Part shown: positions 7,054 to 14,242 of the stretch, in pieces | Layout of the letters: every line of letters starts with the position of its first letter | Numbering within the stretch: position 1 is the stretch's first letter | NCBI GenBank assembly: GCA_965218425.1 | Contig: OZ244621.1 | Span: forward strand, 992,001-1,056,000 | Source of the DNA: an uncultured Candidatus Binatia bacterium | Lineage (GTDB): Bacteria > Desulfobacterota > Binatia > UBA9968 > CAXXLF01 | DNA: 64,000 nt | Reading direction: 5' to 3' | Translations under genes and position numbers: made by a program | Notes under the pieces: generated by a model | The model's database searches: none | The model's input: only the letters and a program-made list of their open reading frames with translations | What the model was told of the DNA's origin: nothing

Positions 7054-8181
7054 TCATGCCGCTGGCATCTGCGACGTTACACCGGTTTCCTTCAGGGCGG
7101 CGTTGTATCGTCGCCTGATTTCCGGATCTTCCTCGTCATAATCAATCAGGGTTCCCCCCTGCTTTGAAGTAAGGTAAACCCCATCCTCCTGGCGCTTGGC
7201 CGGCAAAGTAAATCCCCACGTGTGGAGCCGGCTACCGGTACGCACCGCCAGGTGCCTTGCCTTACTGGGTCCAGTATTGAAATGCTGATGGTACCAGCCG
7301 CTTGGCGGACAGTAAACGCTCCCTTCTCTCCAGGCCACCTGGGTCACCTGGTCGCCATGGCCGCTTACGAAGGGCTGTGGGCCTGCCTCCTTCGGCCAGA
7401 GCAAGACATAACCCGAAGATTGCAATCCCAACAATATGGCTCCCGGACCATGGTAATGCGCCTTGTGGTACCGTCCTTCCGGCCACTCGGACAGGTGGCC
7501 GATCAACCCGTTGCCGGAGGCCTCAAACTGGGTGATCCGAACACCGGCTCCTTTTACATCCCTGGCGTCGAGACTTGCGGACTGCAGATCCGCTATGAAA
7601 TTGGTCTCCCAGATATGCTGCATGCCCAGCTCATAGCGCTTCTTCCCCACGGCAAAATAATCTTCCTCGCCCCGGTAGCGATCGGAAAATTGGTATGGGC
7701 AGTTGAACACGAAATCCGGCCTATGAAATAAATCCATCAGCAGGGGGGCGTTGGTCACCGCCAGGAATCTGACCGGTTCGCGGCCGCCATTGATCAACCG
7801 ATGCCAGGTGTTTACCGGGGGTACAAAGAGACTGTTCTGACCCCACTCAAACATTCGCTTCGTTCCCCCATCCTGCCAAACCTCCGTGGCTCCCTGACCG
7901 TCCAGGATACAAATAACTTCCTCATACAAATGCTTTTCAGGCTCCAGAGCTCCACCCGCGGGGATCTCGGCCGTGTACATCCCCGTAACACCTTCCATCC
8001 CATAGAGGTTGATAAAGCAACCCTTTCCACCCGTTCGACGCCATGGAACTAGATTCAATCCTCGCACATCCTCCACGCCGTGCCCTGCCACTATGGGAAG
8101 GCCTTCTTCACCCATCCACTTGAAATAAGATGTCTTCCGAAATGCGTTCATCAACTTTTCCATTTGCGGATCTGTAGCCAT
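7054..8181 (-). CDS. Bicupin domain protein (gentisate dioxygenase-like superfamily)
   Basis: Cupin motifs KHLYEEVICIL, HKAHYHGPGA and WYHQHFNTG. Confidence 0.8.
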   Translation of the reverse strand: MATDPQMEKLMNAFRKTSYFKWMGEEGLPIVAGHGVEDVRGLNLVPWRRTGGKGCFINLYGMEGVTGMYTAEIPAGGALEPEKHLYEEVICILDGQGATEVWQDGGTKRMFEWGQNSLFVPPVNTWHRLINGGREPVRFLAVTNAPLLMDLFHRPDFVFNCPYQFSDRYRGEEDYFAVGKKRYELGMQHIWETNFIADLQSASLDARDVKGAGVRITQFEASGNGLIGHLSEWPEGRYHKAHYHGPGAILLGLQSSGYVLLWPKEAGPQPFVSGHGDQVTQVAWREGSVYCPPSGWYHQHFNTGPSKARHLAVRTGSRLHTWGFTLPAKRQEDGVYLTSKQGGTLIDYDEEDPEIRRRYNAALKETGVTSQMPAA

Positions 8182-8389
8182 AATTTACTCCTCTTCCGTC
8201 AAATTATTCCTTCGCTAACCATGGGTGAACCACCCAATGGGAAACCTCTACCACAAGAAAAAACTAACCTCAACGTGGAACCCACGGCCGGGGGCCACCG
8301 CAGGGCCCCGGCTAATAATGTCGAATTCTTAACGGAATTGAGCATCCCGTCTCATCTTGCGTTAAAGCGGACTCGGTCTCCCTGGAAAA

Positions 8390-8575
8390 GAACCTTCGTA
8401 AAAACAGTTTCCTTAAGAAGGGTTACCCAAAGGACAAGCCGACCAGAGCGTGGTTCCCATTCAACTAATTCCCATGTGATGACGGCCTAGCTCCAAAAGC
8501 AGGATTTGCGAAATGAGCCGGTCATTGCGGAAGGAGCGGACTGCAAGGGGCTATGCGCCCCGGGTCTCTTTTTCC
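8390..8575 (+). ncRNA. Candidate sRNA: gene-less paralog of the RRM-gene 5' leader
   Basis: 8422-8477 matches 8997-9051 at 48/56 positions, with an identical CCGACCAGAGCGTGGTTCC core. Ends in GGGGC-TATGC-GCCCC plus a T-rich tract. Confidence 0.4.
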
Positions 8576-8887
8576 CTTCCACCCGCTTTACTGGCAAATA
8601 GCCTATCAGGGGCGGATTTGAGAAACTCTGACCTAAGGCGCGCGGCGTTTTTATGACGCCAATATCGCTCCGACCTGCGCGGTGTGGCGGGCCTAGACTC
8701 GGTATGGGACCCGGGAAGGGCCTCCTTTCATCAGACGGTGGTGACGCAAAAGCAGATGGAAACCATTGAGAAGGCTTTCCGCTCTCTGGGATACTTTGAC
8801 GTCCGGGCGGAATAGGGAGGCAAAAAAGGCTTACCCTCTGGCAACATACGAGCGATTTGGCTGGTCCTACTTAGTCAGCAATTTCTA

Positions 8888-8916
8888 TTGAAAAAGACCG
8901 GAAAACGAGGTAGCTT
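8888..8916 (+). promoter_or_regulatory. Sigma70 promoter for the RRM gene, giving a ~200-nt 5' UTR
   Basis: TTGAAA-17 nt-TAGCTT. Confidence 0.6.
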
Positions 8917-8922
8917 AAAAAT

Positions 8923-9122
8923 TACACTTCAGTAAGGGGCCTTCTGAAAGTGAGATTGAAGTCGTTGAAGGCCCAGGTAGTCTAGCCTTGCGAAACGTTA
9001 CCTTAAGGACAAACCGACCAGAGCGTGGTTCCAAGCCAACTTTTCCCATGTTCTGCTCCCACCGGTGATCACATTCCCAGGGTCTAAGACGTCAACGTTC
9101 TCTTATTGATAAGGAGGAGAAC
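8923..9122 (+). promoter_or_regulatory. Structured 5' UTR of the RRM gene
   Basis: Stems GGGCCTTC/GAAGGCCC (8937-8944/8967-8974), AGGTAG/TTACCT and CAGAGCGTGG/CCATGTTCTG (9019-9028/9046-9055); AAGGAGG RBS. Confidence 0.55.
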
Positions 9123-9437
9123 ATGAGCAACAAAATATATGTCGGTGGATTGCCCTATGCCACTACGGAGGGCCAGCTGCAGGAAATTTTTTCTGCCCAT
9201 GGTGCCGTAGAGTCCGCTCGGGTGATCACTGATAAGTTCACCGGTCGCTCAAGGGGCTTTGGATTCGTCGAGATGAGTTCTGACGAAGAGGCCCAAAAAG
9301 CGATCGAGGCATTGAACGGAACTGATCTCGACGGACGCACCCTGACCGTCAACGAGGCCCGTCCTCAAGAGAGACGGCCTAGTGGCGGTGGTGGGGGGGG
9401 TGGGGGCGGCGGCGGCGGTAGACGAAACCGTTGGTAG
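9123..9437 (+). CDS. Single-RRM RNA-binding protein with a glycine-rich tail
   Basis: RNP2 IYVGGL, RNP1 RGFGFVEM, LTVNEARP and a poly-Gly C-terminus. Confidence 0.97.
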   Translation: MSNKIYVGGLPYATTEGQLQEIFSAHGAVESARVITDKFTGRSRGFGFVEMSSDEEAQKAIEALNGTDLDGRTLTVNEARPQERRPSGGGGGGGGGGGGRRNRW

Positions 9438-9663
9438 CTCTGGTTCTTAGACCCTGAGCATGTGGGGCGTTCGGTCGGTACGCCCCGTCCCATAAGATTT
9501 GCCGTGTCGGTTCATTTCTAGCTGACGGGCGAGCTGCCACTAGCCGATGGATGTGTGTATCCTGACCGCTGTGGTAGGTTGTCTCTTTAATCACAAGCCT
9601 CTATCGGGATTTCAGAAATTTAAAAAGTCGGTTTTCACGCTAAGGCGAGGCCCATTTGACGTG

Positions 9664-10755
9664 TTAAAGTCGGTAGAGTCGAGCGGCGTTGTGGCTCAGA
9701 ATCTTCTGCTGCAGCTTTGGATCAAGATCCGTTCGACCGTGGAGTTCTCCAACCATGTTTTCCGTCCGCGACGGGTCTTCATGGGGGTAGTCTGAGGCGA
9801 TAATGAGCTGATCCTCGCCGATTAGATTGAATAGATAGCCAATGTCCTCATCCGACTCTATGGATATAAAGATGTTACCTGTTTCCAGGTACTCCCTCGG
9901 GTTTTTCTTGCAGGGTAACCGTCGGTCACGCCAGGAGCGTTCCAGTTGACGAACGGCATAGGGAAGCCATTCCGACCCCGCCTCGAGAAAACCCAGGCGC
10001 AAAGCGGGAAACTCGTCTAAGACTCCCTGAGAGACGAGGCTGTAAAACCCCATCATCACCGGAAGCGCGGCCGCCGAGAAACTGGAGTTTTCAAGGGTTT
10101 GAAATAGATCCGTCAAACCTGGGCCCGCCCATCCGAAATGGACACAGACCGGGATATCCAGACGGCTTGCCTCTTCATAGAAGGGAAACAAACGCCTGTT
10201 ACCGAGCTCGGTGTCCCAAACCACTCCAAGGGTCATTACTGCCACCGCACCCATCTCCTTGGCTCGACGAACCTCGCGCACCGACTCATCTACGTCCCGA
10301 AGGGGAACCACCGCGCTGAACCGCAGGCGCTCCTTTGCTTTCCCGCAAGCCTGCGCCATCCAGCTGTTGTAGCTACGGCATAAGGCGGCCTCCAGAGCCA
10401 CATCATCGGTCAATGCCACAAGGAACAGAGTCGGAAAGATGACCTGGCAATCGATGCCAAGCTTATCCATGTCCTTAAGGCGGGCAGGGACATCGGTTAA
10501 GGTTTGAGCTCCGATGGTCATGGGTTTCGCCAAGGCGCTTTCAGAAATGGTGGGAGTCCCGAAGATATGTAACTGTCGACCGGCAAGCTTGGGAAAAACC
10601 TTGCCCTCGATGAGCCAAAAGGCGTTATGCCGGCCGTAGAGGGTATCCTTGTCGATTTTTACCGGAATGGGTCGCTGCAGATGGAACTCTTCACCCAGGA
10701 ATTTCCAGGTATCGGTGCATTCGTACACATGTGCATCCGCGTCGATAACTTTCAT
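9664..10755 (-). CDS. Amidohydrolase_2 family protein
   Basis: IDADAH, VCVHFG, LEAGSEW and ASDYPH motifs. Confidence 0.92.
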   Translation of the reverse strand: MKVIDADAHVYECTDTWKFLGEEFHLQRPIPVKIDKDTLYGRHNAFWLIEGKVFPKLAGRQLHIFGTPTISESALAKPMTIGAQTLTDVPARLKDMDKLGIDCQVIFPTLFLVALTDDVALEAALCRSYNSWMAQACGKAKERLRFSAVVPLRDVDESVREVRRAKEMGAVAVMTLGVVWDTELGNRRLFPFYEEASRLDIPVCVHFGWAGPGLTDLFQTLENSSFSAAALPVMMGFYSLVSQGVLDEFPALRLGFLEAGSEWLPYAVRQLERSWRDRRLPCKKNPREYLETGNIFISIESDEDIGYLFNLIGEDQLIIASDYPHEDPSRTENMVGELHGRTDLDPKLQQKILSHNAARLYRL

Positions 10756-10766
10756 GATCCACGCGG

Positions 10767-11858
10767 TTAAAATCCGTAGAAGGCCTTTGCGTTGTCCCGG
10801 ACAATTTTGCTTTTGGCCGTGTCGCTCAAGTCCGGTCGATCCACAAAAACCTTCAAGGCCTGCACATTTGAGAATGGGTCGGTGTGTCCGAAGTCGGTGC
10901 CAATGATCAGATTGTCCTCTCCCGCATACTGCATAATGTAGGGCAAGTGGTCTTCATACTCACAGGCTACCCACACTCGCTTCCTGGTAAGCAGCTCGCT
11001 CACGGCCTTCTTGGCGTCTTTGGTATGATTATCCAGACGCACCACCCCTTCCAGTATCCACACAAGCCACTGGGCGCCGGCTTCGATGAATCCCACCCGG
11101 AGTCGCGGAAACAGATCCGGGACTTCGCTTCGCAGGTAGGAATGGCACGAAGCAACCGTGGGAACCCGAAATCTCCAAAACAAGCTATGCTTTACCAGCT
11201 CAGCATTTACGGGGTTGGCGTTGGCAATGTGAACCGTGATGGGGATGTCCAGCCGCTCAGCCTCTTCATAAATCGGATAAAAGTAAGGATCCGTCAAGTG
11301 GCGGTCTCCCTCCAGGGGTCGAAGGCAAATACCCACCGCACCGTTATTCTTACACCAGCGCACCTCTTGAATGGCTTCAGGGATACTCAGGGTTGGCGGC
11401 AAACAGGACCACCGTAGCCGGCCTTTTCCGTGTTCCCATGTCTTGCCCATCCATCGGTTGTAGCTCCGGCACAGCGCTATCTCAGCCTCTGGATTCTTGG
11501 TCACCTGCGATAACCAGAGGCTGTTATGCATTACCTGGATGTCAATGCCCACCTGATCCATATGCTGTATGCGTTCATCGGCTTTGGTCAGCTCCCGCGC
11601 CCCCCGGTCCGTGACCATGTCGCGGCCGGTTCGCTCTGTGAGCTCTATTAATTCCTGCGGGGTCCGCGTGGTGGGACGAAAACCGATGACCTTGTCTTGC
11701 AGTATCCAACACTGCTGGCCAGGCTCTTCGTCGGACTCCACAAGACGCGGCCGAAACCGCTCCTCGGAGGGCTCCAGGTATGCCCACGTGCTTTCGTTTT
11801 CAATAACGTGGGCATCTGAGTCGATCATCAGAACCGGTTCTCCATTAATCTTTAGCAT
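10767..11858 (-). CDS. Amidohydrolase_2 family protein (close paralog of 18636-19721)
   Basis: IDSDAH, ITVHIA, IEAGAQW and GTDFGH motifs. Confidence 0.92.
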   Translation of the reverse strand: MLKINGEPVLMIDSDAHVIENESTWAYLEPSEERFRPRLVESDEEPGQQCWILQDKVIGFRPTTRTPQELIELTERTGRDMVTDRGARELTKADERIQHMDQVGIDIQVMHNSLWLSQVTKNPEAEIALCRSYNRWMGKTWEHGKGRLRWSCLPPTLSIPEAIQEVRWCKNNGAVGICLRPLEGDRHLTDPYFYPIYEEAERLDIPITVHIANANPVNAELVKHSLFWRFRVPTVASCHSYLRSEVPDLFPRLRVGFIEAGAQWLVWILEGVVRLDNHTKDAKKAVSELLTRKRVWVACEYEDHLPYIMQYAGEDNLIIGTDFGHTDPFSNVQALKVFVDRPDLSDTAKSKIVRDNAKAFYGF

Positions 11859-12015
11859 AGGCCTCTCTCCTAACGGGTGTAGGTAATTTCATTAAAAATC
11901 ACTGCTTTTTTCGAAACACTACTCCACCGGTAGCGCCATGTCAATTGTGACCCGGCTAAAGTGCGAAAAGTGTGGTTCCATGAGCTATGGATCCGAGTCC
12001 TACCGACAGAATGAA

Positions 12016-12717
12016 ACTGCTATCGCGGGAGCTGCCGTCTCTTCGCGTTGACCCTGGGTTGAGGGGGCTTGCTTCGCTCCGCGGGACTCCCGCAGCGACC
12101 CATCGGGCATTCGCTCCTATGAACCTCCAAAGCTTCATGGCTCCTCGTGGAGCGAGCCTCCGGCCGCAGGCAATAAACCGGTGAATATCTGAAGCTGAAC
12201 GTTCGATGCCCACGGCCTTACGTCTCGCTCCCCAGCATCGCATTGCGGTTTTTGGGCCCAGGGGGCCTGCACCGAAGAGAGGGAGACGTCCGATACTGGT
12301 AGCTCTTGCCAATCTGGCATGTCAGATCAAATGACGGGGCCTCGAGGCACAGGCCCGTCGGCTCCCGCTGAGGGGCAGGCCCCCGAGCCCAGCAGTCCAC
12401 TCCCCCGCCAATATCGGCGGAGCGACCTTCCAAAGCTTACCTTCTCCTCGGAAAGCGAGTCCTCAGGCCGTGGGCAACAGGCTGGTGAATATCCAAGCTC
12501 TACGCTCGATGCCCACGCCCTTCATCCTCGCCCCCCTCGGAGCCAAGTGTGATATGGGTCAGACTATTGGGATATTTGACATCACCCGTCACGATCCACC
12601 GAACCCGGTCCCGAGCACATTGCCCCTCGGCAGCCTGAAGCGCCGGGGCGTAAGGGTGATTTTCGCGGTCCCGCCGAGGAACCGCTGAAGCGAAGGGACG
12701 GCAACTCCGGTAGCAGT
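12016..12717. repeat. Mosaic structured repeat with terminal inverted repeats (MITE/REP-cluster-like), copy 1
   Basis: TIRs 12027-12046 and 12690-12709 match at 17/20. 12161-12388 is the reverse complement homolog of 38712-38939. 12082-12155 is homologous to 39474-39530 (inverted) and 54224-54275 (direct). Confidence 0.8.
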
Positions 12718-12784
12718 CCGCCTCGCCAATTTTGACAGAACCACGGGGATCGGTTATCTATTTGGCCTGGCAAATCGTGAAAGG

Positions 12785-14242
12785 ATGGATAAGGCAATGA
12801 CGATCAGGATCGACGGCGGCACCGTGGTGGGCTGGTCCGGAGAGCACCACGAATTGATTCCCGACGGTAGCGTGTATATTGATGGCGACACCATCAGCAA
12901 TGTGGGCAAGGACCGTACCAAGCAGGCCGACAGGGTCATCGATGCCTCGGACAAACTCGTTTGCCCCGGTTTTATCAACCTTCATGTGCACTCGCAGCTC
13001 AACATCGGCGACTACCTCTTGACGGATGTGGGCAAGAAAGATTATATGACCGCCAACTACTTCGTTTTTGGCGCACCCGCAAAAGACAAGCCATCGCCAT
13101 TCACTCCCGAGGGGGTGGCCATCGGTCGAAAGTACGCCCTTTTCAGTGCCTTGAAAAACGGCTCAACCACCATCCTTGACCCGGGCAGCGGACCGGGAAA
13201 CTTCGACGACTACGTGGAGATCGTTGGATCCATCGGAGGGCGAGCGTTTTTCAGCCCCTCCTTTCGAAGTCACGACATCTTCACCGACGGCGCGGGACAC
13301 CATTCTTATGAAGCCCGCCCGGACGGGGGTCGCCCTGGCCTCCAGGCGACAGTGGACTTTATTCGCAAACACAACGGGGCTCACAATGGCCGGATGCTGG
13401 GCATTCTCAACCCCGGCCAGGCGGAGACCTGCGAGCCTTCGCTACTCAAGGAGACCGCCACGGCGGCAAAGGAACTTGGCGTCGGCGTTCACATACACGC
13501 GGGAGGCAACCTCCGCGAGGTGGTTTACATCCTGTATAACCACCGAAAGACGGTCCTCGAGTACCTGGCGGATGCCGGGATACTGCAACCCGAAACCATC
13601 CTTGGTCATTGCGTTCTCACCGCAGATCACTCGAGGTTGGAGCGTCCTTTCACCGATGAGTTGAAGATGCTGTCCGAGTCCGGCGCTTCGGTAGGTCACT
13701 GTGCTTACAAATATGCGAAGATGGCGCTGGCCATGGAGTCGTTCGACCGCTTCCTGGATGCCGGCATCAACGTGGGCCTTGGAACCGACACCTATCCACT
13801 GGACATCGTCTCGGAGCTGCGTTATGCCTCGGTCATCTCCCGATTGGTGGACAAAAAATACAACGGCGCACCGCCAGCGAGGGTATTCAATGCCGCCACC
13901 GTCTGGGGCGCTAACGCCCTGGGGAGAGACGACCTGGGCCGGCTTGCACCCGGTGCGAAGGCGGATATCACCATTATTAATCAACGTTCCACCCGCTACG
14001 GACCCGTTCGAGATCCCATCACGGCACTGGTGGAGTATGGATGCGGCGCCGACGTGGAGACGGTGCTGGTCAACGGAGACGTGGTAATTGATGGAGGACA
14101 TTCCTCGAAAATTGATGAAGAGGACCTTTACGGCCGGGCAAACGCAGCCGCGAACCGAGCATGGGATAACTGGTCCAAGCGGGACTGGGCGGGAAGGTCA
14201 GTCGAAGAAATCATCCCTCCAGCCTTCCCCACTCGGTCCTGA
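12785..14242 (+). CDS. Amidohydrolase_1 family protein (chlorohydrolase/deaminase-like)
   Basis: PGFINLHVH, VHIHAG, LGTDTYP and GRLAPGAKAD motifs. Confidence 0.9.
   Translation: MDKAMTIRIDGGTVVGWSGEHHELIPDGSVYIDGDTISNVGKDRTKQADRVIDASDKLVCPGFINLHVHSQLNIGDYLLTDVGKKDYMTANYFVFGAPAKDKPSPFTPEGVAIGRKYALFSALKNGSTTILDPGSGPGNFDDYVEIVGSIGGRAFFSPSFRSHDIFTDGAGHHSYEARPDGGRPGLQATVDFIRKHNGAHNGRMLGILNPGQAETCEPSLLKETATAAKELGVGVHIHAGGNLREVVYILYNHRKTVLEYLADAGILQPETILGHCVLTADHSRLERPFTDELKMLSESGASVGHCAYKYAKMALAMESFDRFLDAGINVGLGTDTYPLDIVSELRYASVISRLVDKKYNGAPPARVFNAATVWGANALGRDDLGRLAPGAKADITIINQRSTRYGPVRDPITALVEYGCGADVETVLVNGDVVIDGGHSSKIDEEDLYGRANAAANRAWDNWSKRDWAGRSVEEIIPPAFPTRS

Follow-up and report, generated by a model that had tools for sequence, protein, structure and literature searches.

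Here, we report a candidate cis-regulatory RNA element that would span both ends of RRM mRNAs in one order of Candidatus Binatia. A short segment of the leader, the key (CCGAC, 9014-9018), is complementary to GUCGG in the loop of the hairpin after the stop codon (ACCGACC 9013-9019 versus GGTCGGT 9473-9479), and the two have changed together among orthologues; we put the probability that this RNA contact exists at about 0.9. As shown by comparison of orthologues, the contact would be a helix of 5-7 bp that closes the mRNA across the ~320-nt ORF, i.e., a long-range pseudoknot in which both local hairpins stay folded. Conserved, complementary UTR segments with compensatory changes are the mark of a 5'/3'-UTR long-range interaction, and such segments were found here. 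The window, i.e., the whole stretch of DNA that was analysed, is 64,000 nucleotides long; the features discussed are collected in Table 1.

Table 1. Positions in the window of the RNA features at the RRM gene
Feature	Position	Strand	Basis or detail
Truncated leader copy	8411-8477	+	88% identity (67 nt) with the upstream paralogue's leader in sister genome G001; HMM positions 57-126 only
Putative sigma70-type promoter	8888-8916	+	-35 TTGAAA 8888-8893, 17-nt spacer, -10 TAGCTT 8911-8916
Leader 5' domain	8928-8973	+	UUCAG 8928-8932/CUGAA 8944-8948; P1 GGCCUU 8938-8943/AAGGCC 8968-8973
Central leader domain	8980-9090	+	P2a GUCU 8980-8983/AGAC 9087-9090; P2b CCUUG 8986-8990/CAGGG 9078-9082
Leader key (A)CCGAC(C), partner of the 3' hairpin loop	9013-9019	+	Covariation
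P3, AGAGCGUGG 9020-9028 with CCAUGUUCU 9046-9054	9020-9054	+	Adjoins the key on its 3' side
Anti-SD/anti-AUG strand CAUGUUCUGCUCC, alternative partner of 9113-9125 (proposed closed state)	9047-9059	+	Conservation, folds
5' arm of second helix (helix C; holds the 12-mer)	9070-9089	+	18/20 pairs with 9445-9464
Shine-Dalgarno, spacer, and start codon GGAGGAGAACAUG	9113-9125	+	Sequence; nearly invariant in ortholog alignment
3' arm of second helix (helix C)	9445-9464	+	GACCCT in first 45 nt of trailer, 6/171
3' hairpin GGGGCGU/ACGCCCC, loop UCGGUCGGU (GGUCGGU 9473-9479)	9464-9486	+	Sequence and orthologues

The RRM gene and its transcript

The gene is an ORF on the plus strand (9123-9437; SD at 9113-9118) that encodes 104 amino acids, with a single RRM domain and a Gly-rich tail ending in RRNRW. 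Pfam RRM_1 matches residues 5-74 with an E-value of 9.3e-26 and 89.9 bits (cut-off 20.7), and a match above the cut-off together with a short Gly-rich tail is what characterizes bacterial single-RRM glycine-rich proteins. Single-RRM proteins of cyanobacteria (Rbp proteins) show cold induction or RNA-chaperone activity; by analogy, cold induction and RRM autoregulation may apply to the gene here. It is one of three RRM genes in the genome and has no partner genes around it: a cupin gene lies on one side and an amidohydrolase gene on the other, each on the minus strand. The lineage assignment is based on the cupin, whose protein cluster has members named Candidatus Binatia bacterium. Amidohydrolase-like and cupin genes are abundant in this part of the window (7054-14242), i.e., at 7054-8181 and 9664-10755, the two covered by our Pfam scan, and at 10767-11858 and 12785-14242.

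The putative promoter implies a transcript start near 8923. A simple promoter scan of the window did not call it; a TTGACA-like...TAnnnT arrangement was found upstream of the leader motif in 125 of 164 loci. Four RNA runs, all from a single metatranscriptome study of a sponge, yielded contigs nearly identical to 8939-9155, 8944-9129, 9104-9321, and 9397-9548; these would agree with a transcript spanning both contact sites, contigs being of a nature that can neither show ends or strand nor exclude DNA. Their absence over 8300-8910 and 9569-9700 is uninformative.

Orthologous 3' hairpins are GC-rich, lie after the stop codon, and carry a U-rich tail in 135 of 171 loci, and in most orthologues the hairpin is that of an intrinsic terminator. 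The loop hexamer lies 25-62 nt past the stop codon (median 37) and is the most conserved part, not the sole one, since the stem is fairly conserved too (often 80-96%). The hairpin of the window's subclade has no U-tract (the tail in the window is GTCCCATAAG). That of the window was not called by the terminator scan; it lacks the U-tract that defines an intrinsic terminator, and the 3' end of the transcript in the window is putative.

An uncatalogued leader motif in one order

The leader of the RRM gene is ~200 nt long and shared by many relatives. We collected 213 distinct RRM loci in relatives and metagenomes and a further 32 in distant phyla; the loci from the order-wide motif-pattern search were required to have CCG at the start of the key, and 58 metagenome loci were anchored on CATGTTCT...CAGGGTNAAAGAC with the key left free. 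A leader profile built from 102 leaders, which were selected on features other than the key, matches at E<1e-10 upstream of 178 of the 213 loci (order plus metagenomes) and matches none of the 32 distant-phylum loci at 1e-5. Applied to the genome of the window, it recovers the three RRM genes, the upstream copy discussed below, and one weak site. The motif pattern occurs in 84 of 123 genomes of the order, in families f1 (4/4), f2 (76/90), and f3 (3/28), a tally that includes four unpublished genomes which were counted but whose sequences were left out of the analysis. The three f3 matches have no RRM ORF, and the RRM genes of f3 have degenerate leaders only.

The leader HMM has no match in loci L282-L298, a set with 15 members from other orders. 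There were 11 pattern matches in 106 other-order genomes of the class, and 2 in 250 genomes of the phylum, neither with an RRM ORF. Of the 11, we inspected 10; none has an RRM gene, and any HMM matches are short and weak. Among the genomes searched, the motif was found in one order only. The covariance models of Rfam 15 gave no match in the window at the gathering threshold; below it, the scan returned unrelated families outside the leader with E-values of 2.5 and 7.7, and six related loci yielded a tRNA only. The leader is probably an uncatalogued motif, which supplementary motif catalogues could list.

The RNAalifold consensus of the 102 leaders comprises a 5' pseudoknot-type domain, P2a, P2b, and P3. 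The 5' domain, whose adjacent stems would give the topology of an H-type pseudoknot, is well preserved (each pair is kept in 87-100% of the 164 loci and has 0-10 double changes), and it may shield the 5' end of the transcript. P2a and P2b are kept in 83-99% of loci with zero double changes, and the P3 pairs in 88-99% with almost none; P3 has a probability of 0.98 in the window.

Two groups of RRM genes differ at their ends. The MGAKL-type paralogues (L137, L138, L142, L143, L145) have a different conserved leader, CCGAAGAGCG...GCCCTTTGG...GATCC, which is possibly a related or a separate motif, and they often run up to a convergent gene without a terminator. The MSQKL-type genes of f3 (L013, L026, L148-L155) have degenerate leaders, and a branched, conserved 3' hairpin (TTGGCGGTCCCGT...ACGGTGACCGCCAAG) replaces the usual terminator.

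Leader key and hairpin loop have changed in step

The key sits ~103 nt upstream of the AUG in orthologues. From the 178 motif loci, 5 with short flanks and 2 with a gap or no hairpin were set aside, leaving 171, in 159 of which the five core key-loop pairs hold (all six pairs in 140). The 12 core misses are two hairpin mis-picks that do carry GGTCGG (L015, L035), two degenerate f3 loci, and eight true losses in families f1/f2 or metagenomes (L109, L117, L119, L127, L141, L180, L192, L334). Without the mis-picks and the degenerate loci (n=167), position 3 is A-U in 155 loci, G-C in 7, A·A in 4, and G·U in 1, and position 4 is C-G in 138, U-A in 19, U·G in 6, and other in 4. A CCGACC leader is never paired with a GAUCGG or GGCCGG loop. 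The covariation goes back to about six independent origins, and most single changes lead to G·U. At the sixth pair, which is loose, 1 of 5 loop changes is compensated. The initial annotation had proposed that the mRNA ends can pair across the ORF and that orthologues be searched for compensatory changes between the 5' and 3' blocks; such changes are present at the key-loop pairs, its block A, and the conserved contact supports pairing of the ends.

In a forward test with the prediction written beforehand, 18 unseen variant leaders, which are not independent events (eight come from one genus, i.e., 8 of the 12 newly fetched U-A loci), had a compensated loop in 15 cases, a wobble in 2, and a broken pair in 1. 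All 32 new consensus leaders having a trailer had GUCGG there. Changes were mapped on a tree built without the tested sites. Loop U-to-C has two origins, both on branches with leader G (2.9% of tree length), and loop G-to-A has four, three of them with leader U (8.6% of the tree) and the fourth on a branch that consists of one compensated and one broken locus. Multiplied over the five clean events, the tree shares give ~5e-7, which is a rough figure. An independent-pairs sign test was not significant, having too few pairs, none of which was opposite at positions 3 and 4.

As a control, sliding the partner gave pairing of 0.09-0.57 versus 0.97 for the true partner. Among 276 terminator-like hairpins in the window's genome (a set that excludes the window's own hairpin, which has no U-tract), one has a GTCGG loop, and it belongs to the other intact RRM gene, the paralogue at 754 kb. 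RRM loci of distant phyla show no loop-leader excess (4.79 versus 4.70 when shuffled; 24 of 32 loci had a hairpin). In three genomes (G212, G226, G228), paralogues hold different keys, each matching its own loop. The isolated key-loop duplex amounts to about -13 kcal/mol, loop costs not counted.

Some loci have local partners for the contact sequences. In one paralogue clade (L117, L119, L127, L141, L329-L331), the leader has UCGG just after CAUG(U/C), a local partner for CCGA; because the loop no longer matches in four of the seven members, the local UCGG-CCGA pair may have replaced the long-range one in this clade. In the trailer of L015, GGTCGG is followed by its own copy of CCGACC, and the local hairpin would compete with the leader.

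A leader proposed to be poised between two folds

CAUGUUCUGCUCC can pair with either of two partners, the P3 strand AGAGCGUGG that adjoins the key on its 3' side, or the SD and AUG. Both pairings are kept in about 90-100% of loci almost without double changes, and the eight AUG-proximal anti-SD pairs in 96-100%. A switch between them is inferred from conservation and energy only, because P3, anti-SD, and P2 pairings show almost no double changes. In leader-only folds at 37 °C (154 loci), the closed form is dominant in 109 and P3 in 37. An energy survey of 160 loci (5 were skipped for an absent anti-SD pattern) favored the closed fold by a median of 2.3 kcal/mol, which fell to 0.4 when CCGAC was held open, and the RBS was unpaired at 0.38 versus 0.18. 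Opening CCGAC costs 1.2 kcal/mol in the P3 fold versus 3.2 in the anti-SD fold. For the leader in the window, P3 is already favored by 3.4 kcal/mol without the contact and by 5.9 with CCGAC held open. The computed balance at 15 versus 37 °C is nearly equal (median 2.4 versus 2.3 kcal/mol, in a model that leaves pseudoknots outside).

Two further comparisons were made on the anti-SD strand. Loci that lost the contact do not have a weaker anti-SD (p 0.45; 8 unpaired rows, including the two mis-picks). A purine-purine-pyrimidine triplet before the AUG, present in 167 of 171 loci versus 12% genome-wide, was considered as anti-SD support and rejected, as transitions from AAC mimic it.

In the mechanism that we propose, the leader would be poised between a closed fold, with CAUGUUCUGCUCC masking the SD and AUG, and an open fold, with CAUGUUCUGCUCC in P3. 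By stacking on P3, which adjoins the key, the loop contact would shift the balance to the open fold; finished, 3'-intact transcripts would then be translated better than nascent or 3'-trimmed ones. We give even odds to the contact stacking on P3 and favoring translation of the finished, 3'-intact mRNA. In the subclade of the window, helix C should favor the open fold too, because it would cross the anti-SD helix.

A real contact may have another consequence, i.e., it may govern stability by shielding a nuclease site in the leader or at the 3' end, or it may repress, the finished mRNA being inert until 3' trimming. The key-loop covariation applies equally to this reading, and there are precedents in the available parts of two reports: 5'/3' pairing of hbs restricts endonuclease cleavage in the leader (PMC5737220), and full-length aapA3 is inert via a 5'-3' interaction (PMC6733600). 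However, the RBS would not be masked directly by the 3' end, whose partner is the key and not the SD, and the cheaper opening of CCGAC in the P3 fold points to activation. We regard control of stability or repression as possible, although we do not expect it. Possible, though rather unlikely, is the full form of our proposal, an RNA-only completion checkpoint in which the RBS of the nascent RNA would be masked, the loop of the finished terminator, docking ~450 nt back, would turn translation on, and the RRM product would open the dock and limit its own synthesis. The feedback step, with the RRM product melting or binding the contact, is speculative.

The hairpin could also act in trans on the leader of its own gene, either as a small RNA derived from the 3' UTR or between mRNA copies. 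Covariation is blind to cis versus trans, and a stable terminal hairpin could outlast the message; terminator loops act in sRNA regulation of fepA, and those of E. coli sRNAs matter in regulation, there probably without pairing (PMC11979758, in the part available). A duplex of 5-7 bp is nevertheless short for pairing in trans, and with paralogues that each match their own loop by different keys, cis is the simplest fit; we consider action in trans improbable.

Helix C and the proposed nested panhandle

The initial annotation had drawn the two mRNA ends as a nested panhandle of three blocks (the key-loop match as block A, block B, and a 12-bp block within helix C), opened by temperature or RRM binding or cut by RNase III. 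Checked on the sequence, all of its quoted strings lie where it had placed them. CAGGGTCTAAGA at 9078-9089 and TCTTAGACCCTG at 9445-9456 are reverse complements without a mismatch. Both local hairpins are real as well; at 37 °C, the pair probability is 0.96 for 9019-9028/9046-9055 and 0.93 for 9464-9470/9480-9486. The contact of block A is conserved, but as a loop kiss or pseudoknot with the 3' hairpin intact, and the local folds are not replaced: as nested helices, blocks A and B do not exceed a probability of 0.02, and the local hairpins remain above 0.9. Block B is an imperfect match, CCCATGTT/AGCATGTGG, around the palindrome CATG and does not go beyond chance; its partner CATGT is present in 4 of 171 trailers, three of them in the window's genus. 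Forcing blocks A, B, and C together raises the ensemble energy from -233.6 to -216.7 kcal/mol. The full nested panhandle, ~17 kcal/mol worse and with a block B seen in the genus only, was rejected.

The 12-bp block had been taken for the conserved core, which it turned out not to be: it is found in one subclade (6 of 171 trailers) and shows no covariation. In the window, the helix C duplex is the strongest of its kind among the 171 loci, and among 1565 SD-bearing ORFs called crudely in the window's genome, 4 have a perfect match of at least 12 bp between the 200 nt upstream and the 60 nt downstream. Of the six trailers with GACCCT, one is that of the window, two belong to genes of the sister species, two come from other genera of the family (one gene per genus), and one is that of an unrelated locus. 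The five family loci have no clear U-tract, and their helix C core is 7-8 bp long without a double change; it is absent from 165 of the 171 loci. Helix C shows no covariation because its leader side, which also forms P2, is nearly invariant across the order. It is plausible that helix C is an addition of the subclade. Inspection by eye had hinted at another helix shared by the whole order, in which the part of the leader that follows the anti-SD would pair with the spacer separating stop codon and hairpin; it was rejected, the own pairs not clearly beating permuted ones (p 0.057 in 161 loci, 0.18 in 79 non-redundant).

RNase III requires a duplex of about the size of helix C, whose 18 of 20 pairs in the window, together with the core retained in the five family-level loci, would suit the panhandle. 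For naked RNA, helix C is computed to have a probability of 0.77 at 37 °C, which drops to 0.06 at 25 °C and vanishes (0) at 15 °C; in the model, this trend stems from competition with ORF pairs that ribosomes would disturb, and we do not take it as evidence of a thermometer. With a cost of about 17 kcal/mol, a block B confined to the genus, and a helix C that most loci lack and that has zero double changes, the nested panhandle is very improbable.

That there is no RNA contact, the motifs being conserved separately as protein sites or DNA inverted repeats and matching by coincidence or shared descent, is hardly credible, since for all the near invariance of the core and the many newly fetched U-A loci from one genus, several double changes are independent, single changes go mostly to G·U, and the partner lies within a hairpin loop.

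The upstream copy and the third paralogue

The copy of the leader upstream of the gene had been proposed as part of an autoregulatory RNA system. The copy is real (81% identity to the leader of the downstream tandem RRM gene in G001, against the 88% in Table 1 for the upstream one), but a component role does not follow. Because it has no promoter, no 5' helices or 5' domain, and no RRM ORF, and its best match is the leader of a tandem paralogue, it probably remains from a tandem RRM paralogue that has been lost here and is still intact in the sister species. It keeps the key and may act as a decoy. The region around it (8180-8660) looks noncoding, with several GC hairpins (8279-8312, 8547-8561), and, apart from the leader copy, occurs once in the genome and for the most part does not resemble the sister genome.

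The third RRM paralogue of the genome lies outside the window (G000:C1:4410679-4412383, minus strand). It has an IS-like element, IS3-type by appearance, inside the P2 strand of its leader, and an in-frame TAG; the key and the GGTCGG loop are retained despite the insertion.

Comparison with known systems

The sources cited here were available in part, and the comparisons hold for those parts. The few bacterial 5'/3'-UTR interactions reviewed are RNAIII, icaR, and hbs, none of them via a terminator loop (PMC7821165). Closest is hbs of B. subtilis (Braun, Durand, Condon 2017, PMC5737220), likewise a short mRNA for a small nucleic-acid-binding protein with leader-3' UTR pairing, in which a 14-nt segment immediately before the terminator pairs with the leader, thereby restricting RNase Y cleavage. 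Helix C in the window is similarly placed just upstream of the 3' hairpin; the contact that we describe differs in that it reaches with 5-7 bp into the loop rather than upstream of the terminator, with covariation across the order. In icaR of S. aureus and in RNAIII, the 3' UTR also pairs with the 5' region of its own mRNA, but the 3' UCCCC of icaR covers the SD itself, and the result is a substrate for RNase III (PMC7821165). In the RRM mRNA, the site bound by the 3' partner is ~100 nt upstream of the AUG, and it is the leader that contains the anti-SD; the segments bound from the 3' side are 9013-9019 and 9070-9089, away from the SD.

The aapA and hok type I toxin mRNAs share the principle that completion of the transcript alters RBS access by end-to-end pairing (PMC6733600). 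Their full-length RNA is inert, however, with the anti-SD at the 3' end, and there is an antisense antitoxin (PMC6733600), whereas here the product is an RRM protein and the sign that we infer is opposite. The Chlorobi-RRM motif (RF01697; Weinberg 2010, PMC2864571) is also a candidate cis-regulatory RNA named for RRM genes, but it is about 70 nt long, listed for Chlorobi, different in sequence, and gave no Rfam match here; the description that we compared mentions no 3' partner (PMC2864571). In the literature covered (main texts, few of them subscription papers), neither the leader motif nor a contact of a terminator loop with its own leader is described. What is new is an order-wide, uncatalogued leader motif with a covarying contact to its own terminator loop, the kind of 5'/3' pairing being already known.

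Implications

Please note that the function is deduced and that the motif is seen in one order only. The natural key variants are ready-made compensatory mutants, with which end-to-end communication of an mRNA in translation can be tested by a short reporter. A genome-wide screen of terminator loops versus their own leaders is suggested; such pairs are missed by motif pipelines that look at single intergenic regions. If the completion checkpoint were true, it would be a bacterial closed-loop mRNA, with the terminator doubling as a gene-specific key. More generally, because both ends of the mRNA have changed in step in evolution, our comparison suggests that the far end of the RRM message may control its own translation or lifetime.
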